Below, one piece after another: positions 42,152 through 55,633 of a stretch of DNA of 64,000 nt. This DNA comes from Halioglobus sp. (lineage in GTDB: Bacteria; Pseudomonadota; Gammaproteobacteria; Pseudomonadales; Halieaceae). Every line of letters begins with the position of its first letter. Within the stretch, counting starts at the first letter, position 1. The notes below the pieces were generated by a model, which was not told the DNA's origin, did not search any database, and saw only the letters and a program-made list of their open reading frames with translations. The position numbers and the translations under genes were made by a program. Location of the stretch: contig JAXHMT010000002.1 of the NCBI GenBank assembly GCA_034521205.1, positions 37,896 to 101,895 on the forward strand. Reading direction: 5' to 3'.

Positions 42152-42261
42152 GCCCGCGGCAGCGCTTCAGCATGGATGCCCGGCCCGCGCGGTCGTAATT
42201 GCGGACGCCGTCGACGATCATGCCGATTTTGGAATTGTGCCCGGAGCGTCGGAAGGCGCGC

Positions 42262-42347
42262 GCTCTCCCTGGAACCGTGCGGCGACAGGACGTCGCCGCC
42301 CGAGCCTGGCCAGGGAGGGCCGCTTTTTGGCGTGTTCCAGGGAGAGC
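42262..42347. repeat. Dispersed GGA-loop element, copy between convergent genes
   Basis: 14-bp perfect IR GCTCTCCCTGGAAC / GTTCCAGGGAGAGC enclosing GCGGCGAC-AGGAC-GTCGCCGC and GGCC-AGGGAG-GGCC. Confidence 0.88.
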
Positions 42348-42410
42348 ATACCCTCCTGACGCTGCAACTCCGACAAAAATTCGAAATGAGCCACTACCAT
42401 GCAGTCGGGA

Positions 42411-43058
42411 TCACTTGACTGTCGGACCCGTTTCGAGCGCGCGCCGGGCGAACTCGAGGGCCGAGGCGGCATCGACCCGCAGCATGAAGTCGGCCGGAAA
42501 CAGTTTGGCGACCACCTTGTTGTCCGAATCGAGAACCAGCATGCCGGGATGCGGAAGGCCGTAGTGCGTATCTCCCGGTTCATGTCTCTCGTCGAGGATG
42601 CCCAGTGTGCGAAATGTCAGTGCGCCATCGTCGGACAGGACCGGAATGCTGATGTCGTTGCGCTCGATGAATGATCGCAGGTCTTCCGGCGGGTCGTAGG
42701 TAATCACGACAAGCCCGATGCCGGCGGCTTCGAACCGCGGCAGGTAGTCCTGCAACTGCAGCAGCTGTCGCCGGCAGTACTGACACCAGTCGAGTGAGAG
42801 CGTGGCCACAACGACCGTGCCTTTGGTCCCGGCGAATTCCTGCACCAGCGTAATGCGCCGGCCCCGGTAACTGGCCTGCAGCCCGGGGAAATGCGAACCG
42901 ATGGCGGGGCCCGGCTCGAAGTCCGCTGTCGAGGACGGGACGAACCTCTTATCCTCGTGCGGGGCACCCGATGGCCCGGAGTTGACGGTCCGGTACAGAT
43001 AGGCCAGCGCAAGGGCGGCGACCAGCAGCAGCGCCAGAACAGACAGCGTCCTCTTCAC
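42411..43058 (-). CDS. Membrane-anchored peroxiredoxin-like (AhpC/TSA) protein
   Basis: N-terminal TM; SLDWCQYCRRQL; VLSD; PHPGMLVLD. Confidence 0.82.
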   Translation of the reverse strand: MKRTLSVLALLLVAALALAYLYRTVNSGPSGAPHEDKRFVPSSTADFEPGPAIGSHFPGLQASYRGRRITLVQEFAGTKGTVVVATLSLDWCQYCRRQLLQLQDYLPRFEAAGIGLVVITYDPPEDLRSFIERNDISIPVLSDDGALTFRTLGILDERHEPGDTHYGLPHPGMLVLDSDNKVVAKLFPADFMLRVDAASALEFARRALETGPTVK

Positions 43059-43185: not shown

Positions 43186-44910
43186 ATGTTTGACCAGCTG
43201 CTGGTCGCGGGACTGTTTGCCGCGCTACTGTTCTGTCTCATTTTCACCAGCTGGTCCGCGGTGTGGGTTTTCGTCTGTGCCATGCTGGCGGCGTATTTTT
43301 CCGGACTGGTGGAAACCGACCAGGTACTGGACAAGGCCACCAACACGGGACTGGTGACGTTGATATTATTGCTGCTGGTCTCCATTGGCCTGGAGAAACT
43401 GCCCTGGCTGTCGCGCCTTTCCCACACATTGATCACGCCCAGTTATACGGGCAGTCTCTTGCGTCTGGGCGCCACGACGGCATTCTTTTCCGCCATCGTC
43501 AACAATACCGCCGTGGTGGCGACCCTGGCCCACACGGTGCGCAGCAATCGTCATCACCCCGTCAGCAAGCTGCTTATACCCTTGTCCTACGCGGCAATAC
43601 TCGGCGGCACAATGACACTGATCGGTACTTCCACCAACCTGATTGTCAGCAGTTTTCTCGAGGATGCCACGGGCAGTGGCCTGGCGTTTTTCGACTTTCT
43701 GGCGGTGGGCGCGACGGCGACCGTGGCCGGTCTCCTGGTTATTCTGGTCAGCTCGCGACTATTGCCCGAAGGCAGCATGGAACCCCTGGATATCAAGGAA
43801 TACGTGATCGAGGCAGAGGTCAGCGAGGGTTCGAGCCTCGTGGGCAAGAGCGTCCTGGAAAACAGGCTGCGCGACCTCGAGGATCTCTTTCTGGTCGAGA
43901 TCGTGCGCGGCGACTACCTGATTTCGCCCGTGACACCGCAGGAGCACATCGAGGCGGGGGACAAGTTGATCTTCTCCGGCGACATTACGAAAGTACAGGC
44001 CCTCGAAGCCTTCGACGGCCTGCACCTGTTCGCGGTGGACGAGGGCCTGCTGCGGGAAAACATGATTGAAGTGATTGTCATGCCCAACGCCACGATCGAG
44101 GGCAAGACGGTCAAGGACAGCGCCTTCCGTTCGGTGTTCGACGCGGCGGTGGTCGGCATGCGGCGCGGCGGCCAGCGGCTCTCGGGCAAGCTCGGCAATA
44201 TCACGATCCAGGCCGGCGACAGCATGATGCTCGCGGTCGGCCCCGACTTCAATGAGCGCAAGAATCTGGACAAGAATTTCGTGGTGATCGACGATGAGGT
44301 GGGCGAGGTCACCACCACAACCTTCAACAACTATTTCATCACGGGGGCGCTCATACTGGTTATCGCGCTGGCCACGCTGGAAATCGTGCCGTTGATCAAG
44401 GGGGTCGGCGCCTTGCTGGTCGCGATGCTGCTGTCGGGCGTGGTCAGCGGCGGCGAATTGCGGCGGCGCTTTCCGTTCGAACTGTGGTTGATTATCGCCT
44501 CGGCCCTGACGTTGTCACAGGCGCTGAGCAACTCGGGGCTGGTGGCGGCGTTGGCGGATACGCTGCACAGCAATCTGTCGATCGTCGGACCCTGGGGTGC
44601 CATGATCGGCATCTATCTCGGCACGCTGCTTCTCACCGAGACCATGACCAACAATGCCGCCGCGGCACTCAGCTTTCCCGTGGCCTTCGGCCTGGCGGAG
44701 AGCTACGGCGTGAATTTCATGCCCTTCGTGATGGCGGTCGCCTACGGCGCCAGTGCCAGTTTCATGACGCCCTACGGCTACACCACCAACCTGATGGTGC
44801 AGAACCTGGGCGGTTACGAGTTCCGGGATTATCTGCGCGCGGGCCTTCCCATGTCGCTGGTCTACAGCGCGATTGTGATACTGCTTATCCCGCGGTTTTT
44901 CCCGTTCTAG
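43186..44910 (+). CDS. SLC13 family permease with two TrkA-C domains
   Basis: SAIVNNTAVV, PLSYAAILGGTMTLIGTSTNL, TETMTNNAAA, ASASFMTPYGYTTNLMV. Confidence 0.93.
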   Translation: MFDQLLVAGLFAALLFCLIFTSWSAVWVFVCAMLAAYFSGLVETDQVLDKATNTGLVTLILLLLVSIGLEKLPWLSRLSHTLITPSYTGSLLRLGATTAFFSAIVNNTAVVATLAHTVRSNRHHPVSKLLIPLSYAAILGGTMTLIGTSTNLIVSSFLEDATGSGLAFFDFLAVGATATVAGLLVILVSSRLLPEGSMEPLDIKEYVIEAEVSEGSSLVGKSVLENRLRDLEDLFLVEIVRGDYLISPVTPQEHIEAGDKLIFSGDITKVQALEAFDGLHLFAVDEGLLRENMIEVIVMPNATIEGKTVKDSAFRSVFDAAVVGMRRGGQRLSGKLGNITIQAGDSMMLAVGPDFNERKNLDKNFVVIDDEVGEVTTTTFNNYFITGALILVIALATLEIVPLIKGVGALLVAMLLSGVVSGGELRRRFPFELWLIIASALTLSQALSNSGLVAALADTLHSNLSIVGPWGAMIGIYLGTLLLTETMTNNAAAALSFPVAFGLAESYGVNFMPFVMAVAYGASASFMTPYGYTTNLMVQNLGGYEFRDYLRAGLPMSLVYSAIVILLIPRFFPF

Positions 44911-45709
44911 GCGTCAGGGGGTTGCAGTGCGGGCCGGCTTTCCACAACTGCGGCAGGGACTCTTCCACCAAGCCCGCGTTCCAGCCGCCATCGGCGATGA
45001 ATTCCGAGCCGGTGCTGTAACTCGCTTCATCGGAAGCCAGGAACGCGGTGACCGCCGCCACCTCCCGCGGCAGGCCGACCCGGGGCAGGGCGTGGCGCTG
45101 GTAAAACCGGTCGGCATCCTGTTGCGACATGAATTCGGACCCGTGCATGGATGTATAGATGCCGCCGGGGTGCACACTGTTCACGCGAATGTTGTATCTG
45201 CCCATCTCCAGGGCGGCCGCCTTGGTCATGCCGCGTACCGCCCACTTGGTGCCCGAATAGGCGGCAAGGGAGTTTTTCGACTGCAGGCCGTCGATGGAAG
45301 AGACGTTGATGATGGACCCGCCGCCCGCGTCCCTGAGTGGCTCGAACACCGCCTGCATGCCCAGAAACACACTGAGCTGGTTGATGCGCACGATATTCAT
45401 GAAGTCCTCTTCGGTGGTATCGACGATCGTCTTCTGCAGAACGATAGCCGCGTTGTTCACCAGTATCCGCAGCGGCCCCAGGGCTTTTGCGGCGGCGACC
45501 GCCGCTTCCCAGTCGGACTTTTGTGTCACATCCATGTGCACGTAGCGCGCCGCGTCGCCTAGTTCGTCGGCCAGGGCCTGCCCGGGTTCGTCGAGAATAT
45601 CGCCGATGAGTACCCGCGCGCCTTCCTCGACCATCAGTCGCGCAGTGGCCTCGCCCATGCCCCGGGCGCCGCCCGTGACGATGGCGACCTTGCCTGTCAA
45701 ACGCTGCAT
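44885..45709 (-). CDS. SDR, 3alpha/20beta-hydroxysteroid dehydrogenase-like
   Basis: TGGARGMG, NNAA, INVSS, YSGTKWAVRG, RVNSVHPG, TGSEFIADGG. Confidence 0.92.
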   Translation of the reverse strand: MQRLTGKVAIVTGGARGMGEATARLMVEEGARVLIGDILDEPGQALADELGDAARYVHMDVTQKSDWEAAVAAAKALGPLRILVNNAAIVLQKTIVDTTEEDFMNIVRINQLSVFLGMQAVFEPLRDAGGGSIINVSSIDGLQSKNSLAAYSGTKWAVRGMTKAAALEMGRYNIRVNSVHPGGIYTSMHGSEFMSQQDADRFYQRHALPRVGLPREVAAVTAFLASDEASYSTGSEFIADGGWNAGLVEESLPQLWKAGPHCNPLTPRTGKTAG

Positions 45710-45774
45710 GCTTGTGCCCCTTTTGTTTTCAATGGAAAGGAAGGCGCGGGATTATAAAACAGTGCCCGCCGACT

Positions 45775-45895
45775 TGCCCGTCAATCTTTCTCACCGCGGT
45801 TTTGTGCCATGACCTGCCCGCGCCGCTGCTCGATCATCTGGCTCGTGGCCTTCTCCGCCCAGGCCATGGCGCGCTCCGACTCCCAGGCCAGCGCC
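45775..45895. repeat. Direct-repeat copy of the enoyl-CoA hydratase 3' end (att-like)
   Basis: 119 of 121 bp identical to 47177-47297 by eye. Confidence 0.92.
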
Positions 45896-46046
45896 AGCGC
45901 GAGCTGCTCGGCGTGCACGATCACGGCTGCCTTTATGGCGTTGCAGGTCTGCGGGATCATGAACTCCTCCACGGCGGCCACGCTGCCGATGACACGGCAT
46001 GACTCGGGCACGCCATGCGCCATGCCGTTCACCGCCTGCGGCCAGC

Positions 46047-46474
46047 TTAATGATCAGCGAAAGGATTCTCGATCACCAGGGTACCGATTCGTTGTCCATC
46101 CTGCATATCTTCCGTGAACAGACGCTTGCAATCCGCCTCCAGCGCGGCAGAGATGATCAGAGAGTCATAGAATCCGTATCGGTAGCGTTCCTGAATATCC
46201 AGCCCCCGGCGAAACAGGATAGAGCTGGCGGGGACTTTTAACAGTGGATTGAGCACGTGGTCCAGATACAGTCGGGTACCGCTACATCCAGCGGTACCTG
46301 GGCCTTACGCAGGATAGTATTCAGGCATTCCTGAACGACCTGGTAGCTGATACAAGCATTAGCTGTCGCTATGGCCTTGCGGATGATGCCGTCCGCTATC
46401 GCCGTTTTTCGGGGATTCGATTTATCGAGTTGATAGATAAAAAGATTGGTATCGAGAAATGTATCAACGCTCAT
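46047..46474 (-). pseudogene. vapC: PIN domain (VapC) toxin, frameshift near 46280
   Basis: FLDTNLFIY, ISYQVVQECLN, YGFYDSLIISAALEADCKRLFTEDMQDG...IENPF. Confidence 0.9.
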
Positions 46475-46685
46475 TCATTTCTTCCCGACTCAAATGGCGC
46501 CCGAGCGTTACCCGACCCTGTAACGCCTCGATGACCGTATCATACTGCTGCAGCCGGCCGGATTGGCGCGCATACATTTCGAGCCACTCGCGGAACTGCA
46601 CATTGAGCGTCGTGTGCTCAGCGCGTGCACGGGACCGGGCAGCCTCAATCAGTTTTCCATCCGCACTTAACGTGATATTTTTCAT
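46464..46685 (-). CDS. VapB-like antitoxin
   Basis: MKNITLSADGKLIEAARSRARAEHTTLNVQFREWL...LSREEMNER; overlaps the PIN start. Confidence 0.85.
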   Translation of the reverse strand: MKNITLSADGKLIEAARSRARAEHTTLNVQFREWLEMYARQSGRLQQYDTVIEALQGRVTLGRHLSREEMNER

Positions 46686-46706
46686 AGTCGCATAATCGCT
46701 TACAAA

Positions 46707-46734
46707 CACGAGAGTAGTGTACACTGTTTTCGTG
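46707..46734. promoter_or_regulatory. Imperfect palindrome centred on AGTGTACACT; putative VapBC operator
   Basis: 11 of 14 arm positions pair; 21 bp upstream of the antitoxin ATG. Confidence 0.5.
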
Positions 46735-46911
46735 GTTTTTGCATAACGGACATCGATCTGAACCTGAACCCTCAGGGCAACGAAGGTAGCGAATTTCGCT
46801 TTATCGCCCTACATCTTTTCTGCCCGCAGCAGTCATTCAATCAATCAATTATCTGCGGTAGTGGCTGACATCGCCGGTAATATCACGTGACTTCCGAGGG
46901 GGACGGGGACA

Positions 46912-47110
46912 ATAGTAGGTACAGCGCGTGCGGTGACGCGGCCGGGCCTTGAACTCCGGCCGCTGGCCGCGCTGCCACAGAGCCAGGTCGATCTCGCGCG
47001 CGCTGGTGTGCAGGCCCGCTTGGCGCAGCGCCGCGACGAGCCGCTCGACGCGTGCACGCTGAGCGCGCGGATCTCGACAGTCTGTCCATTCGCGCCAACG
47101 CCATGGCCAG
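46912..47110 (-). pseudogene. C-terminal fragment of a queuosine-salvage hydrolase (Qng1/DUF2419-like)
   Basis: VEIRALSVHA(V)ERL...SAREIDLALWQRGQRPEFKARPRHRTRCTYY after restoring one base near 47045. Confidence 0.6.
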
Positions 47111-47182
47111 TAGAGTCCGACCGCCTGCTGCTGCGCCATTGACTGATAGAGGGTACGATTGGCGACGCGCACAACCTGCCCG

Positions 47183-47953
47183 TCAGTCTTTCTCACCGCG
47201 GTTTTGTGCCATGACCTGCCCGCGCCGCTGCTCGATCATCTGGCTCGTGGCCTTGTCCGCCCAGGCCATGGCGCGCTCCGACTCCCAGGCCAGCGCCTCG
47301 TCGAAAGGCATCGAGTAGCCCTCGCTGATCAACTGCTGATAACCGGCCAGCACCTCGGGCACGCAGGCGCACATGTTGCGCGCCATCTCCATGGCGCGGG
47401 GCAGCAATTCATCCTGTGGCAGCACGTGATTCACCAGCCCCCATTCGTAGGCCTGGGCAGCGCCGATGGGCGCGCCGGTGAAGGACATCTCGCGCGCCCG
47501 CGACAGACCGATCAGGCGCGGCAGCTTCTGGCTCAGACCCCAGCCCGGCAGCATGCCGACCCGGGCGTGGGTATCGGCGAAGCGCGCGTTCTCCGAGGCG
47601 ATCAGCACGTCGCAGGCCAGCGCCATTTCGAAGCCGCCGGTAATGCAGTGCCCGTTGATCGCGCCGATGATGGGCCCCTCGAACGCGGCCATCGCGTCGC
47701 CCACGGCGTTGTCCGCTTCCCCCGCCGTGCTACTCGCCTCCGGGGAGCCGAGTTCCTTCAGGTCAAAACCGGCGCAGAACGCCCTGCCGTTGCCGGTCAG
47801 TATCACCACTCGCGTGTCCTCGTCCCGGGTGCAGGTTTCGAATACCGACACAAAGTCCGCGCGCAGTTCCCGCGATAGCGCATTCATGGCATCGGGCCGG
47901 TTGAGGGTGACGACGGCGAAACCGTCGTGTTTTTCCAGCAGCACAGTGTTCAT
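47183..47953 (-). CDS. Enoyl-CoA hydratase/isomerase
   Basis: TLNRPDAMNALS, FCAGFDLKE, INGHCITGGFEMALACD, FADTHARVGMLPGWG. Confidence 0.94.
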   Translation of the reverse strand: MNTVLLEKHDGFAVVTLNRPDAMNALSRELRADFVSVFETCTRDEDTRVVILTGNGRAFCAGFDLKELGSPEASSTAGEADNAVGDAMAAFEGPIIGAINGHCITGGFEMALACDVLIASENARFADTHARVGMLPGWGLSQKLPRLIGLSRAREMSFTGAPIGAAQAYEWGLVNHVLPQDELLPRAMEMARNMCACVPEVLAGYQQLISEGYSMPFDEALAWESERAMAWADKATSQMIEQRRGQVMAQNRGEKD

Positions 47954-48350
47954 TGTGAAGAAGTCCGCATGTATGACCACATCCTGTGTCGGGGAGTTCG
48001 ACGATGGAACGGGCGAGCCGAGTGGGGAGTCCGTCGTCAGACAGAGCCTGGCCGCAAGGCCATGATGCACCGGGCAGAATAGCGTTATACAGTGACGGGG
48101 TCGAGCAGGCAGCACAAGCCTGGCCGCGGGCCTTGTTCGCCCCTTTCTCCAGAGCCTGCGGGGTCGTTCAGCTTGCCCGACAACGTCGCCACGCCGGGTC
48201 CGGCCATCCTGTGCTTTTCAGGTATATGCTTCATCGTGATCACACCCCCTCGTGAAATGTTGCACCCGCCAGCGCCAGCCGAAGCTCGCGCAAGGCCTGG
48301 CGCAGGATATGGCGCGCACTGGCGAGAAACAGCAGTGCCATGCCACTCGG

Positions 48351-48692
48351 TCAGGGAGCCCGCGGCGCAAAAGCGTGCGAGTCCTCTGCGCCGTCGTCGA
48401 TACGGATTGCGCGCAGGATTTTCGTGATCATGACCCGGCCGTCACCGGCGTGGCCCGGTCCCGTACGGCCCTCGGTGACAATACAGCGGGCTGCCCGATC
48501 GGCATCCTCGATGCTGCCGACATCCACTTCGATCTTGACCATGTCCACCCGAGTCAGCTTGCCGTCCGGCAGCGCATGCCCGTACTGGTGCAGGCCAACG
48601 ACTGCCACACCCGTGACGCATTCGAGCCTGGCAAGCGCGTCGATCACGGCCTCCATCTTGACCTGCTTTACATACCCCTTCACTTCATACAT
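48351..48692 (-). CDS. PII-like protein associated with heavy-metal efflux
   Basis: MYEVKGYVK..KMEAVIDAL, KIEV, GRTG...GDGRVMI, AIRIDDG; short T-loop; last gene of the czc operon. Confidence 0.85.
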   Translation of the reverse strand: MYEVKGYVKQVKMEAVIDALARLECVTGVAVVGLHQYGHALPDGKLTRVDMVKIEVDVGSIEDADRAARCIVTEGRTGPGHAGDGRVMITKILRAIRIDDGAEDSHAFAPRAP

Positions 48693-48711
48693 GAGCACTC
48701 TCCTGTCGGCA

Positions 48712-51700
48712 TCAGACTTCCACTTCCTTGCGGGGCATCGCGAACCAGCGATACACGCTCGGCAGCACCACGAGGGTAAGCAGCGTGGATGTCACCAGAC
48801 CGCCCACCACGACTGCAGCCAGTGGCCGCTGGACATTCGAGCCGATGCCATCGGCCAGCAACAGGGGCACCAGCCCCAGAATGGCGACGGTCGCCGTCAT
48901 CAGCACCGGTCGCAGCCGCCGCTCCGCGCCCATGGCCACGGCCTCGTCCGCGGGCATCCCCTCGTCGCGCAGCTGATTGATGTAGCTCACCAGCACGACG
49001 CCGTTCAGCACCGCCACGCCGAATACCGCGATGAAGCCCACCGCGGCCGGCACCGAGAGGTACAGCCCCGACACCAGCAGGGCGATGATGCCTCCGGTGA
49101 TGGCGAAGGGGACGTTCAGGAAGATCAACGTGGCATAGCGCAGGCTGCCGAACGCCGAGAACAGCAGCAGAAAGATCAGTGCGAGGGTAATCGGCACCAC
49201 CAGATACAGGCGTGCCATCGCCCGTTCCTGGTTCTCGAACTGCCCGCCGAACTCGACGAAATAGCCGGGCGGCATGTCGACCCGCTCGCGGACCAGCCCG
49301 CGCAGCTCTTCCACGACGCCGCCCATGTCGCGCCCGCGTACGTTCATCTGCACGTACAGGCGCCGACTGGCGTTGGACCGCGAGATCTGTTTGGGCCCGG
49401 TGTAGAGACCCACGTCAGCCACCCGCGACAGCGGCACCACGGCGCCCTCCGTGCTGCGCAGCGGCAGCTCGCGAATGAGATCGAGACGGCTTCGCTGGGA
49501 TTCTTGCAGGCGCAGGAAGATGTCGAAACGCCGGATGCCATCGAACACCAGGCCGGCGGTCGCGCCGCCGACACCGGTTTCGAGCGTGCCCAGGACATCG
49601 TCGATGTTGATACCGTAGCGGGCGAGCGCATCGCGGTCCGGACGCACCACAATCTGGCGCTTGCCGCCCTGCTGCTGGGTACGCACGTCGGTGGCGCCGG
49701 GAACCTCGCGGGCCAGCGCCTCGACCTCGCTGCCGATGCGGGCGAGCTCGTCGAGATCGTCACCGTAAATGCTGGCCACGAGCTGCGCCTGTACCCCCGA
49801 AAGCAGCTCGTCGGTGCGAAGCTGAATCGGCTGGGAGAAGTTATTTGCCAGGCCCGGCACGACCTCGCCAACGCGCTCCGCCATGACCGACTGCAGTTCC
49901 TCGTAGGATCGGCCGCTCTCCCACTCGTTGAGCGGCTTCAATGTCACCACCGTGGCGACGACGTTGACCGGCTCAGGATCGCCGCCGACTTCGGCACGGC
50001 CGATTCGAGAATAGGTGCCGGTGACCTCCGGATATTCCCCGAGCACTTTCTGAATGCGTTTGCCGTACTCGATAGCGGAATCGAGACTGGCGCCCGGCGG
50101 CAACGTCGAACGCACCTGGACCGTCCCTTCCCGGAGCGTCGGCACGAATTCCGTGCCGAGCAGCGGGAACAGGGCGAGGCTGCCGAGGAAGACCGCCAGC
50201 GCGATACCGAACACCGTCCCGGGTGCGCCGAGCGCGCCCTTGAGCAACGGTCGGTAGCGTGCCTTCAGCCACAGGACCAGCCGGGGCTCGCCGTGAATGC
50301 TCCCTTTGGAAAACGCCAAAGTGGCCAGCACCGGCACCAGCGTGAGCGCCAGGATCAGCGCGCCAACCAGCGCGAAGCTGATGCTGTAGGCCATCGGGCT
50401 GAACAGCTTGCCTTCCACCCCCTCCAGGGTGAACAGCGGCAGGAAGACGATGATGATGATGGCCATGGCGAAGACGATGGGCCGCGCCACCTCCCGGGCC
50501 GCCTCGCTGACCAGCCGCCACATCGACAGGTCTTCTTCCGATCGCTCCTCGAGATGCCGGAATATGTTCTCGATCATCACGACCGAGCCGTCGACCATCA
50601 TGCCGATACCGATCGCCAGCCCGCCCAGGCTCATCAGATTGGCGGACAGGCCGGAGTAGCGCATCGCGATGAACGCCACGAGTACCGACAGCGGCAGGCT
50701 GGCGATGACGATGAGTGTCGAGCGGAGGTTGCCGAGGAACAGATACAGGAAGATCAGCACCAGCACCGCACCCTCCAGCAGCGCACGCTCCACGGTGCCT
50801 ATCGCCTTGTCCACCAGATCAGCCTGTGAGTAGAACGGCTCGATCGCGCAGGCCGTCCGGCAGTGACTCGTTGATCTCGGCGATCTTCGCATCCACGTCC
50901 TCGAGCACCTGCTGGGTGTTGGTGCCGATGAGCTTGAACACGTACCCGCCGGCGGATTCTTCACCGTTGGCCACCTGAGCGCCGCGCCGGATGGCCGCAC
51001 CATAGGTGACCTCGCCGACATCGCGGACATACACGGGCTTGCCTTCGTGTTCGGCCACGATCACGTTGCCGATGTCCTCGATACCTTGCTCGTCCGGTCG
51101 AAACCCAGCCGAAGCCGCGGACGATGTACTCGTCGCCGGCCCGTTTGATGAACGACGCGCCGACATTGCGATTATTGGCCACCAGCGCCTTGCGCACGTC
51201 GGCAATAGACAGATCCCGGGCTATGAGCGCATTGGCGTCGAGCTGTACCTGATACTGTTTCTCGTAGCCGCCGATGGAGAGCACGCCGGTCACGCCCGGA
51301 ACGGTGCGCAGCTGCTGTTTGACGATCCAGTCCTGGATCGTGCGCTTTTCCATCAGCGAGTAATCCGCTCCGGCTTCGTTCACCAGGGTATACATCAGGA
51401 TGCGGCCGAGACCGGTGGTGATGGGCCCGAGCTCCGGCTCGCCGAGGCCGGGCGGAATCTGGCGGCGGGCATCGGCCAGACGCTCCATCACCAGCCGCCG
51501 GGCGAAGTAGATGTCGGTGCCATCCTCGAAGTACGCATCGACCCGGGACAACCCGAAAATGGACGTACTCTGGACCTTTTCGAGATTGGGCAGACCGTAC
51601 ATGCTGATCTCGACGGGGTAGGAGATCAGCGTTTCCACGTCCACGGGCGAGAGCCCCGGACTCGAGGTGAACACCTGAACCAGGGTGGGCGTGGCGTCGG

Positions 51701-51818
51701 GAAAGGCGTCAACCGGCAATGTCCGGAATGACAGCAAGCCCCCGATGGTGACGGCGGCCACCGCCACCAGCACCATCAGCCGGTTGGCGAGGGCGTAACG
51801 AACCAGTGCTTCGATCAT
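48712..51818 (-). pseudogene. czcA: CusA/CzcA heavy-metal RND permease, frameshifts near 51100 and 50845
   Basis: LPVDAFPD, PVEISMYGLP, GPITTGLG, NLMSLGGLAIGIGMMVDGSVVMIEN, AVLNGVVLVS, RLRPVLMTA. Confidence 0.93.
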
Positions 51819-51833
51819 GTTATTGCTCCCGCC

Positions 51834-53126
51834 TCAGTGTGAGTGTTCGGCGCTTCTGGATGCGGCCGTGAGCGCGGACATGAGGTCGAATGCTCCTTCG
51901 AAGACGACGGGTTCGCCAGCGACGATGCCCTCGACCACTTCGACCCAGCCGTTGCCTTCGTGGCTGAGTGTGACCGGCACGGCGCGGAACGCGTATTCCT
52001 CCTCGGCCGGCACAAACACAACATCCGTCTCACCGAGCCGCTGCACGGCATCAATCGGAACGCGGGGAGGACCTTCGCCGCTGCCCGTATCGATCCTGGC
52101 CGTACCGAACAGGCCCGCCCGCAGGATACCCCGGGGGTTCTCCAGCACGGCTCTCAGCGTCACCGTGCGAGACTGCTCGTCGAGTTCCCGGGATATCCAG
52201 TCGATCTGCCCGGAAAAGCGTGCATCGTTCAGAACACGGGACGTGAATTCGACGTCCTGGCCGAGGCGTATGCGGTCGAGACTGTTTTCGAAGGCATCGA
52301 TCATGAGCCACATGCGGCTGTTGTCGACGATGTGGATGGGCGTATCGTCCGGCCCCAGCGTCTGTCCCGGGGACAGGTCGCGCCGTTGCACAACGCCGTC
52401 CATGCTGGCGGTCAAGCTAAGGCGCGACAGTGCTTTTCCCGGTTCGGTGCTGTCGATTTCCTCGGAACTGAGGCCGAACAAACGCAGCGCCTCCATCGCG
52501 GCCTGCTGGTCCGCCTCCGCCTCGCGCAACGCGGCCCTGGCGTCGAGCAGTTCTGCCTCGGAGGCAATCTGCTGCTCGGCGAGACGTCGCTCGCGCTCAA
52601 ATTCCGCTCGCGCATTTTCGAGCAGCGCGCTCGCCGTCAGATAACGGGCCCGGGTTCGGCCCAGCTGGACGCTGGCCAGCACGGCGAGCACGTCACCGGA
52701 CTCGACGACGTCGCCCAGATCGACCAGTACCTGTACGACTTTGGCTTCCAGCCGCGGGCCGATACGGGCGACTCTGTCCGGATCGAAACGTACCACCGCC
52801 GGCGCGCTCAAAAGGGCATCCGCATGGCCCCTGGGAGAATTGGCAATCTCGATGTTCAGCAGTCCATGCTGCTCCGGTGTCAGGTGGATTTCCCGTGCCT
52901 GCCCGTCCGCTGGCTCCTCGTGCGGTGCCTGCTCCTGCTCACCATGCTCCTCGGCCCCGGCCTCGTCGTGCCGTGCAGCGGACGGTGTCTCTCCCTCTTG
53001 CTGGCAGGCCGCGAGGAAGGGCAGCAGAAGGACGAAGACGACTAGCGTGAATGGTCGGCGCAGCCGTCGCGGCCACGTTCCGAAAATGGATGATGGGTAC
53101 ATGATGTTGAGCTCCAATTGATTCAT
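51834..53126 (-). CDS. czcB: CzcB/CusB membrane fusion protein
   Basis: Lipobox LAAC, His/Glu-rich linker, lipoyl-like VDLGDVVESGDVL, SRTVTLRAVLENPRGILRAGLF. Confidence 0.92.
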   Translation of the reverse strand: MNQLELNIMYPSSIFGTWPRRLRRPFTLVVFVLLLPFLAACQQEGETPSAARHDEAGAEEHGEQEQAPHEEPADGQAREIHLTPEQHGLLNIEIANSPRGHADALLSAPAVVRFDPDRVARIGPRLEAKVVQVLVDLGDVVESGDVLAVLASVQLGRTRARYLTASALLENARAEFERERRLAEQQIASEAELLDARAALREAEADQQAAMEALRLFGLSSEEIDSTEPGKALSRLSLTASMDGVVQRRDLSPGQTLGPDDTPIHIVDNSRMWLMIDAFENSLDRIRLGQDVEFTSRVLNDARFSGQIDWISRELDEQSRTVTLRAVLENPRGILRAGLFGTARIDTGSGEGPPRVPIDAVQRLGETDVVFVPAEEEYAFRAVPVTLSHEGNGWVEVVEGIVAGEPVVFEGAFDLMSALTAASRSAEHSH

Positions 53127-54430
53127 GGCGTGCTGTCCTTCTGCACTTTGTTTTCCTCAAGTACGATCAGGCCACCGGTCGCCCGCTCGAGCTCCGTCAC
53201 CGACACGATCAGGGCGCCCAGCGACCCCAGGTAGCTGCGACGGACGTCGATGAGGTTGTTCTGGGCCGCGGTGATTGCAGGCGCCCCGACCTTGCCGGCC
53301 TCGAATGCTTCCTGGGTCAGCTCCAGGTTGGCTTCGGCCCGTTCAAGCATGGACGTGCCCAGCAGCTCCGCCCGGCGCCGGGCCGCGCGGTAGTCGGCGA
53401 TTGCGCTCAGTACCTCGCGGCGGACAGTGAGGCGCAATTCGTCTTCCTGGAGTTGCTGTTCGAGAAGCTTTCCCGCCGCCTGTTCGCGCTCGCCGCCATA
53501 GCGGTGCAGCAACGGAAGCGGCAGGCTCGCGCCAATGCCGGTGATTTCCGCCTGTTCTTCTTCCTCGTAGAAGCCGAAAACCGTCAGATTGGGAATGAGC
53601 TGGCGGCGGCTCAAGCGCAGCTCCTCACGTGCGGCCTGCACGCGCTCGGCGGCGGCTGCCAGGTCGCCGCGCCGGCGGGCCGCCGCGTTCAGCACCCGCG
53701 TTTCCCCTGGCAGGCTCACGGGCCAGGGCTGAATATCGCCGGTGACCCGAATCGGCGCGGTCGGATCGCGAGCCAGCACGTCGGCCAGCGCCAGCCGCGC
53801 CTGTGCCGATTGACGCTCCGCCTCCACCAGCTCGGTGCGGGCGCGGGCGGCGCCGATGAGTGCGGAATTGAGATCGAGCGCGGTGGCGCTGCCCGCCTCG
53901 AGCCGGCGCCGGGCATAGTCGGCCAGCCTGTGTGTGAGCTGCACCAGGCGCCCCGCCGTTTCCTCGGCCCGTTCGGTCAGCAGGACGTTCAGGAACGCGC
54001 GGCGCGCCCGGGCGGCGGTCGCGGTGCGGAGGAAGCGAAGATCCTCCTCGACCGCGGTCAACCGGGCCGCTGCGGCACCGCGCTGCAGGCCCCGCTGCCC
54101 GCCGATCCAGAATTCCTGGCTGAGGCTTATGCTGAAGTCCCGGCTATTGTCCTCCGCGTCGACCTCCCGATCACTGGTAGCTACCTCGAGCGAGGGATTC
54201 GAAGGGGTCCAGCGGCGGGCATGTGTCAGGGCCCCGCCTTGCTGGCGGACCCGCGCCATGGCCTGGCGTACCGCATAGTTCCCCTCAAGGGCCTCGTCGA
54301 TTGCGCCGTCGAGCGTGAGGGGGCCTGTTCTGTCCCGGGCAGTGGTTGCCCGGTTGTCCGCTGCAACGGCCTGCAGCGACAACGCTGCACACAGTCCGAG
54401 CAACGCAACGCTGCACATCCATCGGTGCAT
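53123..54430 (-). CDS. czcC: CzcC/TolC outer membrane factor
   Basis: Signal peptide; PNPSLEV, LSQEFWIGGQR, LIPNLTV, SLPLPL, EAGKVG. Confidence 0.9.
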   Translation of the reverse strand: MHRWMCSVALLGLCAALSLQAVAADNRATTARDRTGPLTLDGAIDEALEGNYAVRQAMARVRQQGGALTHARRWTPSNPSLEVATSDREVDAEDNSRDFSISLSQEFWIGGQRGLQRGAAAARLTAVEEDLRFLRTATAARARRAFLNVLLTERAEETAGRLVQLTHRLADYARRRLEAGSATALDLNSALIGAARARTELVEAERQSAQARLALADVLARDPTAPIRVTGDIQPWPVSLPGETRVLNAAARRRGDLAAAAERVQAAREELRLSRRQLIPNLTVFGFYEEEEQAEITGIGASLPLPLLHRYGGEREQAAGKLLEQQLQEDELRLTVRREVLSAIADYRAARRRAELLGTSMLERAEANLELTQEAFEAGKVGAPAITAAQNNLIDVRRSYLGSLGALIVSVTELERATGGLIVLEENKVQKDSTP

Positions 54431-54516
54431 GCGAATTGTCTCCGTGCTGGAATGGAAATCCGCCTCGCCGCCCGCGCATTCAGCGGCGGGTAGCAAAACT
54501 CAGTATTGACGGAAGA

Positions 54517-54867
54517 TCAGACCAGGGAGATAGGTGGGCGGAAAAGCCGGTCGAAGTGACCGGACGGGGGGGCATCGAGACAGTGGACAGGCCGAAAATT
54601 GCGCTGCGAATCACAGCTCTGTTTTGCGACCGCTGTGCCTGCGAGATGGATGCAACAGATATGGATGTGAACGTGCGCGGCACCGCCGGTTTGTTCATTG
54701 TCCGGGTTCGGTGCCGGTCGCTCGCCGGGCGCGTCGATATAAAAGCCGCCGGGTTGGTGGCTCGGGGCGCCGCCCTGATGAATATCCGCAAAAGGGATGC
54801 CGTTGAAGACCAGAACCAGCGTCAGCACCAGGCGAAGTGAATGACTGTTGCGAAACACTCTCGACAT
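54517..54867 (-). CDS. CzcI/DUF2946-like His/Cys-rich exported protein
   Basis: Hydrophobic N-terminus, HVHIHICCIH, C-terminal RPP; first gene of the efflux operon. Confidence 0.6.
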   Translation of the reverse strand: MSRVFRNSHSLRLVLTLVLVFNGIPFADIHQGGAPSHQPGGFYIDAPGERPAPNPDNEQTGGAAHVHIHICCIHLAGTAVAKQSCDSQRNFRPVHCLDAPPSGHFDRLFRPPISLV

Positions 54868-55049
54868 GCTAGCAAAATAACACCGGCAACAGGATATAAC
54901 AACCGGCCAACCTTGTCTGGCAGTCGTGGTCGCTTCGGCCTTCACCTCGTCCGACTGCACAGACAGTCAAGCGGCGCCGCGCGACCTCGATGTGAGAGCC
55001 GCAGGCCCGAATGCCGGCGGTGCGCTCTAGCCGTGACCGCCAGCAGGCC

Positions 55050-55633
55050 CAGGTTGAACGCCCGCAGGCCGCTGTCGGGATGTTCGGCCCGCAGCGAGGG
55101 CGCCATGCGCGACAGCGCGGCCTTGGAGGAGGTGAAGCGCAGCCCCAGCCGCCGCCGTCGCCGGCGCCGGGATGGATGTGCGCGCTGTCGCGGTAACCAT
55201 GTTGAGAATCGTGCCGCCGCCGCGTGCCAGCATGCCCGGCAGCAGTGTCTGGACCAGTGTCAGCGGCGTGAAGACATTGGCGCGGTAGATGGCCGCGAGC
55301 TGGTCGTCGGCGACCTCCAGCAGTGGTTCATGTTCCCGTGCCCGGTAACGGCATTGTTGAACAGCAGGTCGAGCCGCCCAATGTTCCGTCGCGGCCCGCG
55401 CCGCGTCCGCCAGCGATCGGGTCGAGGATACCGCGCGCAGGCACAATGCCTCGCTGCCGCGCGCTCCACCGCCGCGGCGGTGGCCCTGAGGCTGCCGGCA
55501 GGGGACTGTCGGAACCCTCGGCGAGGGTGCGCGCGGTGATCGCCACGCGGTAGCCGGCCCGCGCCAGCGCCACCGCGGACTCGGCGCCGATGCCGCGGCT
55601 CGCGCCGGTGATGAAGGCCACTTTGTCAGTCAC
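55050..55633 (-). pseudogene. SDR, multiply frameshifted and 3'-truncated
   Basis: VTDKVAFITGASRGIG, LFNNA, TILNMV, KAALSRMAPSL...RAFNL, then homology is lost. Confidence 0.8.

Follow-up and report, generated by a model that had tools for sequence, protein, structure and literature searches.

Inserts that are flanked by long target duplications are known for restriction-modification gene complexes (Nobusato et al. 2000, Gene 259:99; Furuta, Abe and Kobayashi 2010, PMC2853133). The published repeats are 46-420 bp long and often overlap the 3' end of a gene, and they correspond to a single unique sequence in a relative with an empty site (PMC2853133). The mechanism behind this class has never been demonstrated experimentally (PMC2853133), and a "virus-like life cycle" was proposed for restriction-modification genes but never shown. 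In Rhs, CDI, and T6SS loci, orphan 3' ends and immunity arrays have been ascribed to homology-facilitated illegitimate recombination (Kirchberger et al. 2017, PMC5361080), for which that article cites de Vries and Wackernagel 2002 and Prudhomme et al. 2002. VapBC modules, which are type II toxin-antitoxin systems, have been described as chromosomal "genomic islets" (Van Melderen and Saavedra De Bast 2009, PMC2654758). The route by which toxin-antitoxin modules enter chromosomal slots far from mobile elements is poorly understood.

Here we describe a vapBC islet from Halioglobus sp. that lies between two copies of the end of a neighboring gene. (Positions are those of the window, which is the whole 64,000-nt stretch of DNA that was analyzed.) A repeat search and BLAST identified two direct copies of a 124-nt sequence, at 45772-45895 (copy L) and 47174-47297 (copy R), which are 121/124 identical (E ~2e-55) and are separated by exactly 1278 bp. 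BLAST against the whole 4.4-Mb genome did not find a third copy. Each copy comprises the final 115 nt of the coding sequence of an enoyl-CoA hydratase (ECH) and 9 nt past its stop codon, and the repeat flanks reconstitute the end of this target gene. A first-pass annotation of this DNA had reported a 121-nt core with 2 mismatches (45775-45895 and 47177-47297), which the same searches bore out; the repeat extends for another 3 nt, and these add the third mismatch. It had also stated that both copies encode the same C-terminal peptide of ECH. The minus-strand translations do agree, as both read ALAWESERAMAWA(D/E)KATSQMIEQRRGQVMAQNRGEKD and then stop, and it is the right copy that forms the real 3' end of ECH. 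Thus, the two-copy repeat around the islet is confirmed.

We considered whether the assembler might have joined two strain variants, one of them empty and the other with different DNA 3' of ECH. As a point in its favor, the genome assembly (4.4 Mb) is in 7 contigs and has an estimated completeness of 94.8%. However, the copies differ at 3 sites, and the joint between copy L and the adjacent piece of the islet (fragA) offers no overlap for an assembler to join on, which argues against an artefact. Also, typical reads or inserts exceed 124 bp, the length of the repeat, and the genome contains two analogous structures elsewhere whose empty-site counterparts are found in other genomes. We therefore view an assembly artefact as extremely unlikely.

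Reading from right to left, ECH itself is intact (47183..47953, minus strand, 256 aa; Pfam ECH_1, E 9e-57). Its amino acid sequence is 95% identical to P0122 and 72-82% identical to the enoyl-CoA hydratases of Halioglobus. The gene ends in copy R (47174..47297, minus strand), which is the gene-attached tail and runs on into the body of ECH, as it does in relatives with empty sites. (Both copies were delimited by the repeat search, BLAST, and alignments.) Next to copy R is an 81-nt piece (47093..47173, no strand assigned, GC 0.63) that was set apart by sequence comparison. This piece is present once in the genome and has no significant similarity, in any frame, to homologs of queuosine-salvage proteins. 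It is followed by the decayed 3' stump of a gene of the queuosine-salvage type (PF10343; 46912..47092, minus strand, ~60 codons, GC 0.71), which was recognized by Pfam, tblastn, and frame analysis. The stump has one frameshift, near 47046. Its match to Pfam Q_salvage is weak and lies at the C-terminus of the profile, and 99 representative proteins align over its residues 41-87, each at its own C-terminus.

The toxin-antitoxin genes come next. A spacer of low GC content (46686..46911, minus strand, GC 0.49, defined by composition) lies 5' of vapB and contains a palindrome at 46704-46737, an inverted repeat with a stem-loop, which is probably an operator. The vapB-type antitoxin gene is intact (46464..46685, minus strand, 73 aa), and a homolog search returned 431 proteins, nearly all of them 73 aa, with the best at 79% identity. 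That nearest VapB is located in toxin-antitoxin arrays that are unrelated to ECH. vapB overlaps the start of vapC by 11 nt, and its homologs directly precede PIN genes with the same 11-nt overlap, as is the case in L044. The PIN-domain toxin gene vapC (46047..46474, minus strand) is a pseudogene: its halves match Pfam PIN with E values of 1e-3 and 8e-3, each under the Pfam cut-off, but in two different frames they match residues 1-63 and 66-139 of the intact 143-aa PIN protein of L044. One base is missing between codons 63 and 66 (46281-46285), within a GGTACCGCT..AGCGGTACC hairpin. So the layout is that of VapBC, with a small antitoxin gene that overlaps the PIN-domain toxin gene from its 5' side, and the toxin is frameshifted. 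Because vapC is inactivated by this 1-nt deletion, what remains today is a scar rather than an active element. The earlier reading of the ~1.28 kb between the repeats as VapBC plus gene fragments was correct.

The last piece of the islet is fragA (45896..46046, no strand assigned, 151 nt, GC 0.68, defined by sequence comparison). fragA has no match in Pfam, has no homolog in 41 relatives, does not resemble the body of ECH, and is present once in the genome. It is in frame with copy L, and together they form an 83-aa orphan ORF (45781-46032). We considered whether fragA might be a diverged C-terminal segment of a crotonase, but BLASTP against ECH and Pfam gave nothing beyond the repeat. We also considered whether it might be the upstream part of the queuosine-salvage gene, as in a circular permutation, but tblastn with three homologs matched only the last ~60 codons. 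Both ideas had seemed plausible on visual inspection. An in-frame join of fragA and fragB is a one-in-three event by chance.

Beyond fragA lies copy L, the orphan, displaced tail of ECH (45772..45895, minus strand). Then there are 62 nt of native intergenic DNA (45710-45771), which align with the intergenic region between ECH and the short-chain dehydrogenase gene (SDR) in all close relatives, and the native downstream neighbor of ECH, a short-chain dehydrogenase gene (SDR255; 44885..45709, minus strand; Pfam adh_short_C2, E 7e-57). Overall, at least 4 pieces that differ in GC content make up the mosaic of the islet, which has two frameshifts. This composition resembles a stretch of a variable region rather than a compact element with defined ends.

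The first-pass annotation had read the structure as an integration scar in a protein-coding gene and had suggested that empty sites should be sought in relatives. Such sites are present in 8 contigs of the closest relatives, with ECH at least 90% identical at the amino acid level (L046 and L131-L137), and each has a single copy of the repeat. Their gene order is MarR-SDR285-ECH-(71-90 nt)-SDR255, and both flanks of the islet structure align up to the edges of the repeat. In three congeners (G018, G022, and G024) as well, ECH adjoins the SDR gene and the repeat occurs once. The proposal of a true insertion scar, at the 3' end of this protein-coding gene, therefore holds.

The annotation went on to infer that ECH had served as the attB site of an integrative element, now reduced to its addiction module. 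Under this explanation, a tyrosine or serine integrase would have used the 3' end of ECH as attB, with a 124-bp mimic of it in attP, and internal deletions would have left vapBC and the fragments. The geometry is the classical one for attL and attR: the repeat is the 3' end of a gene, it stops 9 nt past the stop codon, and the ORF is restored. A weak dyad (TGGCCT-N9-AGGCCA) inside the repeat and the mosaic of fragments, which could result from serial internal deletions, are also consistent with it. However, we found no integrase or remnant of one, either in the islet (by Pfam) or on the 136-kb contig C2 that carries it (by a six-frame search for tyrosine recombinases, PF00589). The genome as a whole encodes two tyrosine recombinases of XerC/D size, one 342-aa integrase, and one fragment, according to the six-frame search, and no serine recombinase (PF00239). 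In addition, one of the mismatches between the copies falls within the sole candidate core spacer in the repeat, and the repeat is directly bordered by the unassigned piece and the truncated stump of the queuosine-salvage gene, which would be odd for a conserved attP arm.

Relatives do not support this explanation either. We surveyed ~38 related loci and scanned 28 of them (14 from congeners and 14 from metagenomes) for repeats; the cargo was inspected for integrases by Pfam (G016 and G010), by reading the ORFs (G019), or from precomputed Pfam results (L047/L048). Where the cargo was read or scanned, none of the ~38 loci had an integrase-bearing element at ECH, and none of the 28 had a duplicated ECH tail. 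Larger integrase-bearing elements, which the annotation suggested seeking at this gene, were thus not seen, and in the closest relatives the site is simply unoccupied. When viral, genome, and metagenome collections were scanned for exact matches, the repeat did not turn up in any other context, such as an attP-like copy. The annotation had also raised the case in which no related genome has any element at this position. By that measure, the attB proposal largely fails, yet the slot behind ECH does vary in gene content across the genus. As for the proposal that the islet is a leftover addiction module, the toxin-antitoxin module is the surviving cargo, but descent from an integrase-driven element is unsupported. 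Overall, a decayed integrative element is unlikely.

Other kinds of target fared no better. Searches found no tRNA and no Rfam family or other noncoding RNA at the repeat, and we rejected these as targets. We also rejected an integron attC-like site, as the repeat is native coding sequence that occurs once in relatives, and GTTRRRY-type ends were not seen on reading.

The differences between the copies bear on where they came from. Another potential explanation is that the structure arose within one chromosome, by a template switch or by the repair of a ~124-nt staggered break, so that filler DNA was captured and the ECH tail was copied again; the copies would have been identical at birth and would have mutated later. 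This would take just one event and no homologous donor, and double-strand breakage is invoked in the published hypothesis for restriction-modification genes (PMC2853133). It also fits with the copies sharing 9 lineage-specific differences from the relative L046. However, 2 of the 3 differences between copies L and R match states that are segregating among the relatives (columns 79 and 148 of alignment A2). Because the differences coincide with the relatives' polymorphism, two alleles from close strains fit better than a fresh intrachromosomal copy. Furthermore, it is the functional copy R, and not the orphan, that has the non-majority state at all three sites; this would be expected if the distal part of the gene derived from an integrative element. 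The genome also lacks Ku, so classical end-joining capture is unlikely. The filler, a mosaic of four old pieces of pseudogenes, is not present elsewhere in the genome, which means that foreign DNA would still be needed as its source. We consider an origin within a single chromosome to be very unlikely.

Instead, we favor, with moderate confidence, the insertion of 1278 bp with a long target duplication and without a dedicated recombinase, most likely by host recombination with DNA from a close relative. Foreign DNA that was already decaying would have entered the chromosome just behind the stop codon of ECH. Because each side of the insert retains the final 124 bp of the target, the reading frame of ECH stayed whole. 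The donor would have been a closely related strain that already carried the islet beside the tail of its own ECH. The integration could have occurred in two ways. First, a homologous exchange in or upstream of ECH might have been paired with a non-homologous joint that fell 115 nt short of the resident stop codon, as in homology-facilitated illegitimate recombination. Second, a circular fragment with the ECH tail might have integrated by a single crossover (Campbell type). Either way, the predicted result is the body of ECH, its tail (R), the islet, the orphan tail (L), the native intergenic DNA, and then SDR. The vapBC addiction module probably countered the loss of the insert via recombination between the repeats, and vapC would have been inactivated later. 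One genome does not separate the homology-facilitated, Campbell, and other routes.

Some observations sit less comfortably with host recombination. A gene end carried by attP would look exactly like this repeat, which stops 9 nt past the stop codon. The joint between fragA and copy L lacks clean microhomology: it has 1 shared nt and an adjacent GCGCTG tandem. No collection that we scanned contained the donor arrangement, in which the queuosine-salvage stump would come straight after an ECH tail. There were no look-alikes of the islet in 41 relatives, a distant-mode search of plasmids with the islet gave just one irrelevant match of 79 nt, and exact-protein look-ups of ECH and SDR gave no match. 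Finally, the body of ECH and SDR255 lie at proportionate distances from the relatives, which gives no phylogenetic hint of an imported ECH. A single donor fragment that spans a czc island, ECH, and the islet is less likely, as the remnant of SDR285 is 2.4 times accelerated and the orphan tail is barely decayed. Together with the proportionate distances, these rates suggest two events of different ages.

How does the locus compare with the known systems? The published operational criteria for inserts with long target duplications (PMC2853133) are a repeat of over 30 bp (124 nt here), an insert of under 20 kb (1278 bp here), no mobility genes in or beside the insert (we saw none), a unique repeat (here, neither a multi-copy repeat nor a tRNA), and a relative whose empty site has one copy (as described above). 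A further criterion is a cargo with restriction and modification genes; here the cargo is vapB, the vapC pseudogene, and fragments. The islet is thus the same structural kind of insert with a different cargo. Like the restriction-modification class, it is a small insert without mobility genes, has long direct repeats (124 bp), and carries an addiction-type cargo, but that cargo is a type II toxin-antitoxin pair with scraps of pseudogenes. VapC-type PIN toxins are RNases, so a DNA-cutting enzyme in the cargo cannot be invoked.

The likeness to the other systems is partial. As in tyrosine-recombinase islands and prophages in the ends of tRNA or protein genes, the repeats are the 3' end of the target, the ORF is intact, and the cargo is foreign and of lower GC content. 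In contrast to those islands, there is no integrase, no related element in ~38 loci, and no attP that we could find, and the repeat is long and lineage specific. As with the orphan ends of Rhs, CDI, and T6SS genes, there would be a homology anchor in a conserved upstream gene and a non-homologous far joint, and the resident 3' part is displaced downstream. But the displaced tail barely differs from the functional one, with no different toxin tip, and ECH shows no sign of diversifying selection. The locus shares with VapBC genomic islets the overlap of the antitoxin and PIN genes, the upstream palindrome, the standalone location in a slot that varies among strains, and a sign of lost addiction (the frameshifted toxin). 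However, a long duplication of the neighboring gene's end flanks this islet, and the review of such islets (PMC2654758) describes none.

The same genome contains two further inserts that have this architecture but no recombinase, and their repeats are different and unrelated in sequence. At C3:370593/371978, a lone Hist_deacetyl gene lies between copies of the 80-nt tail of a 175-aa gene, and two congeners (G018 and G022) have empty sites. At C4:1617792/1620676, a 121-nt repeat flanks hicAB and pseudogenes. These inserts also weigh against the decayed integrative element, as neither has an integrase and one holds just a single housekeeping-type gene. The insert on C3 has a deacetylase gene as its sole cargo, so an addiction cargo is not required for the scar. 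A motif shared by the starts of the three repeats (C[TC]GGC..TG, Chi-like) was dismissed as too frequent in DNA of 63% GC.

Thus, a long-target-duplication scar occurs around a toxin-antitoxin pair and, in the same genome, around an ordinary metabolic-type gene. The latter points to a general route of host recombination rather than to an action of the cargo. A bolder and quite unlikely idea is that these bacteria have small mobile cassettes without recombinases, chiefly toxin-antitoxin pairs, that have borrowed the end of a host gene; these would enter by homology, leave a long duplication, and be able to loop out via the repeats, in line with the "virus-like life cycle" that was suggested for restriction-modification genes. 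If so, the three scars in one Halioglobus genome would be the footprints of an active and general route of gene flow. Whatever the route, the vapBC locus is a clean and datable example, as 8 close relatives have empty sites, both junctions can be read base by base, and there is no recombinase. It is also a warning for annotation, as not every duplication of a gene end is an att site. Such scars leave behind small orphan ORFs, like the one of 83 aa here, and they can part the genes of an operon; SDR255 is now behind vapBC and no longer directly behind ECH.

The window contains a single two-copy direct repeat of 124 nt, at 45772-45895 (copy L) and 47174-47297 (copy R). The copies are identical at 121 of 124 positions, and BLAST against the whole genome found no third copy. 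The gene strand throughout this region is minus. Copy R is the genuine end of a gene for enoyl-CoA hydratase (ECH; 47183-47953, minus strand, 256 amino acids; Pfam ECH_1, E = 9e-57) and spans 115 nt at the end of the coding sequence and the 9 nt that follow the stop codon. Copy L is the end of an orphan 83-aa ORF, whose likeness to ECH is confined to the 37 repeated codons. The first-pass annotation had the coordinates, the mismatch count, and the encoded peptide right, and the repeat reaches 3 nt beyond the limits it set.

The sequence between the copies is an insertion. Seven other proteins share a 90%-identity cluster with ECH, and six of them are carried by eight contigs from separate samples (L046 and L131-L137). 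All eight have the gene order MarR - SDR285 - ECH - (71-90 nt) - SDR255 - CitMHS transporter, where SDR285 and SDR255 are the short-chain dehydrogenase genes upstream and downstream of ECH. In L046, the repeat is present once, and its alignment to the window falls into two stretches: SDR255 and the intergenic DNA up to the inner edge of copy L (93%), and copy R through the body of ECH (91%). Thus, the ancestral state was ECH, its tail, intergenic DNA, and SDR255, and the event added 1278 bp and a second 124-bp tail. The empty sites in relatives that the first-pass annotation had proposed as a check do exist: besides these eight contigs, three more distant congeners (G018, G022, and G024) have one. 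We consider it very improbable that the arrangement is an artifact of assembly.

The content of the inserted islet was also described correctly at first pass, as 1.28 kb with VapBC and gene fragments. In the direction of the genes, it begins with an 81-nt piece of no assignable origin (47173-47093), followed by the last ~60 codons of a queuosine-salvage (PF10343) type gene (47092-46912; GC 0.71; one frameshift). Ninety-nine representative proteins match this stump, each solely at its own C terminus. A low-GC spacer (46911-46686) with a palindrome at 46704-46737 precedes an intact 73-aa antitoxin gene, vapB (46685-46464, minus strand), which has 431 homologs with a top identity of 79%. The PIN toxin gene, vapC (46474-46047, minus strand), overlaps vapB by 11 nt and, read in two frames, matches residues 1-63 and then 66-139 of an intact PIN protein of 143 aa, which is encoded after a VapB homolog in a Pseudomonadales genome. 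One base is absent from vapC at 46281-46285, within a hairpin and not a homopolymer. A 151-nt piece (46046-45896) abuts copy L, and no homolog of it was found in Pfam or in 41 relatives. The vapBC core has a GC content of 0.49-0.56, versus a genome average of 0.63, and by BLAST no piece of the islet has a further copy in the genome. The nearest VapB homologs (L044 and L045) lie in other marine Gammaproteobacteria among densely packed toxin-antitoxin pairs, with five to seven different ones per array (PIN, PemK, MazE, RHH, and PRiA4_ORF3); such arrays are a plausible type of source for the islet.

We found no support for the first-pass proposal that ECH served as the attB site of an integrative element. 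Pfam identified no recombinase domain in the islet, and in six-frame searches the 136-kb contig gave no tyrosine recombinase and the genome no serine recombinase. Genome-wide, the tyrosine recombinases amount to a pair of XerC/D-sized genes, a fragment, and a 342-aa integrase encoded on a different contig. The region matches no tRNA and no known RNA family, and exact-pattern searches of the viral, genome, and metagenome collections gave no attP-like or other copy of the repeat. The first-pass annotation had also proposed looking in relatives for larger integrase-bearing elements at this gene. In 14 congener genomes with ECH and the SDR gene on one contig, the slot between them is empty in the three mentioned and otherwise holds ordinary cargo: for example, a ~300-aa porin-like gene at the place of a Porin_7 gene in others or, in some congeners, a 9- to 12-kb porin-GT2-B12/radical SAM-methyltransferase-GtrA cluster. 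Beyond these 14, L047 and L048 have a SnoaL_2 gene in the slot. Where the cargo was scanned, no mobility gene was found, and a scan of the porin-glycosyltransferase-radical SAM-methyltransferase clusters of G016 and G010 found no integrase. The ECH tail is duplicated in none of the 14 congeners and in none of 14 further metagenomic ortholog loci. A decayed integrase-driven island is unlikely, and we retain it because the geometry is classical. Across Halioglobus, this slot (L022-L035 and L047) is a hot spot of variation in gene content.

The differences between the two copies bear on how the second one arose. Both copies belong to this lineage, as they share nine differences from L046. We resolved the three differences between them by aligning the repeat region with the eight relatives. 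At column 79, copy R has C (Asp), as does L134, while copy L has G and the remaining relatives have A (both Glu). At column 148, copy R has C, again as in L134, and copy L has T, as in every other relative. At column 158, copy R has G, and copy L and all relatives have A. Thus, two of the three differences match variation that is segregating among relatives, and at all three sites the non-majority state is in the functional copy. These three sites hint that two alleles were joined by recombination between close strains, rather than that a copy made within the chromosome later mutated. Duplication and insertion inside one chromosome is also disfavored by the absence of Ku from the genome, and we rank it below the integrase-driven island. 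Distances to relatives do not suggest separate ancestries for the ECH body and SDR255 (0.093 and 0.070 to L136, proportionate to the L131-L136 distances), so any donor must have been a close relative.

Insertions with long target duplication were defined as a class by Furuta, Abe and Kobayashi (PMC2853133), following Nobusato et al. 2000 (also cited in PMC2654758); in this class, restriction-modification genes are flanked by long, variable target duplications without another mobile element. They required a repeat of >30 bp, an insert of <20 kb, and a single copy of the repeat in the empty-site genome; the repeat often overlaps the 3' end of a gene. The islet has all of these structural features and differs from the class in cargo alone. 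Those authors call the mechanism unknown and speculate about double-strand breaks and about a cycle in which insertion is followed by repeat-mediated amplification and release. At T6SS and Rhs loci, orphan 3' ends have been attributed to homology-facilitated illegitimate recombination (PMC5361080), in which homology to a conserved gene anchors the incoming strand and the far end of the strand is attached by a non-homologous joint. If that joint landed upstream of the end of the homology, the product would be the donor's gene end, the cargo, and the resident's orphan tail, which is the order observed. A single Campbell-type crossover with a circular fragment carrying the tail would give an identical product. 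We somewhat favor this family of host-recombination routes. We saw no clean microhomology where the 151-nt piece joins copy L, and found no donor arrangement, that would favor one variant over another.

Comparing the genome to itself identified 16 two-copy direct repeats (80-400 nt, spaced 0.4-20 kb), and two of these 16 have the same architecture as the ECH scar. First, on contig C3 (L129, 370587-372499), 80-nt repeats that are 91% identical (370593-370672 and 371978-372057) are the tail of a 175-aa gene and flank one intact Hist_deacetyl gene. The orphan tail lies inside an ORF of 58 aa, and the start of this ORF overlaps the stop codon of the deacetylase gene. In G018 and G022 this site is empty, with 53-54 nt between an EncFtn-like gene and the 175-aa gene. 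Second, on contig C4 (L130), 121-nt repeats that are 97.5% identical (1617792-1617912 and 1620676-1620796) flank 2.76 kb that encodes a membrane ORF, a frameshifted luciferase-like monooxygenase, hicA with an internal stop, and hicB. This repeat is the final 34 nt of an Oxidored_FMN gene and 87 nt downstream, including REP-like multicopy sequence. The REP-like element (~70-105 nt) recurs in intergenic DNA genome-wide, with many matches at 86-92% identity (for example, C4:1620676-1620760 and window ~42218-42583) and spurious ORFs with the signature ...PLEHAKKRPSL... The repeats of the three scars are mutually unrelated and none of the inserts contains a recombinase, so one site-specific enzyme cannot account for all three. 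The C3 scar, with its deacetylase only, shows that addiction cargo is not needed. Judged by title, none of the papers found on long target duplication appears to treat such a scar around toxin-antitoxin cargo. The ECH locus is a new, well-resolved case of a known type of scar, and it is usefully complemented by a sister case in this genome that has no addiction cargo.

At present, the intact genes are ECH and vapB; vapC carries a frameshift, and the queuosine-salvage stump is dead. As long as vapC was functional, deletion between the 124-bp repeats would have been penalized by post-segregational killing, which would explain the toxin-antitoxin core as the remnant of larger variable DNA. The islet now lies between ECH and SDR255, and with vapB, vapC, and the orphan ORF all in one orientation, read-through from the vapB promoter may add to SDR255 expression today. 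SDR255 itself is 274 aa here (end at window 44885-44941) versus 255 aa in relatives: the stop codon that usually follows ...SLPQL is missing, and the 19-aa extension leads to a 26-nt overlap with the convergent CitMHS transporter gene.

On the other side of ECH, a PII-like and czcCBA metal-efflux block (window 47954-55032, ~7.1 kb) is an insertion relative to all eight close relatives and has no flanking repeats; with the islet downstream, ECH is sandwiched between two independent insertions. The block begins 0-2 nt from the ECH start codon, and the native upstream ribosome-binding region is lost. It takes the place of the last 205 nt of SDR285, whose remnant (55033-55600) has a 41-nt gap and is evolving ~2.4 times faster than in relatives.
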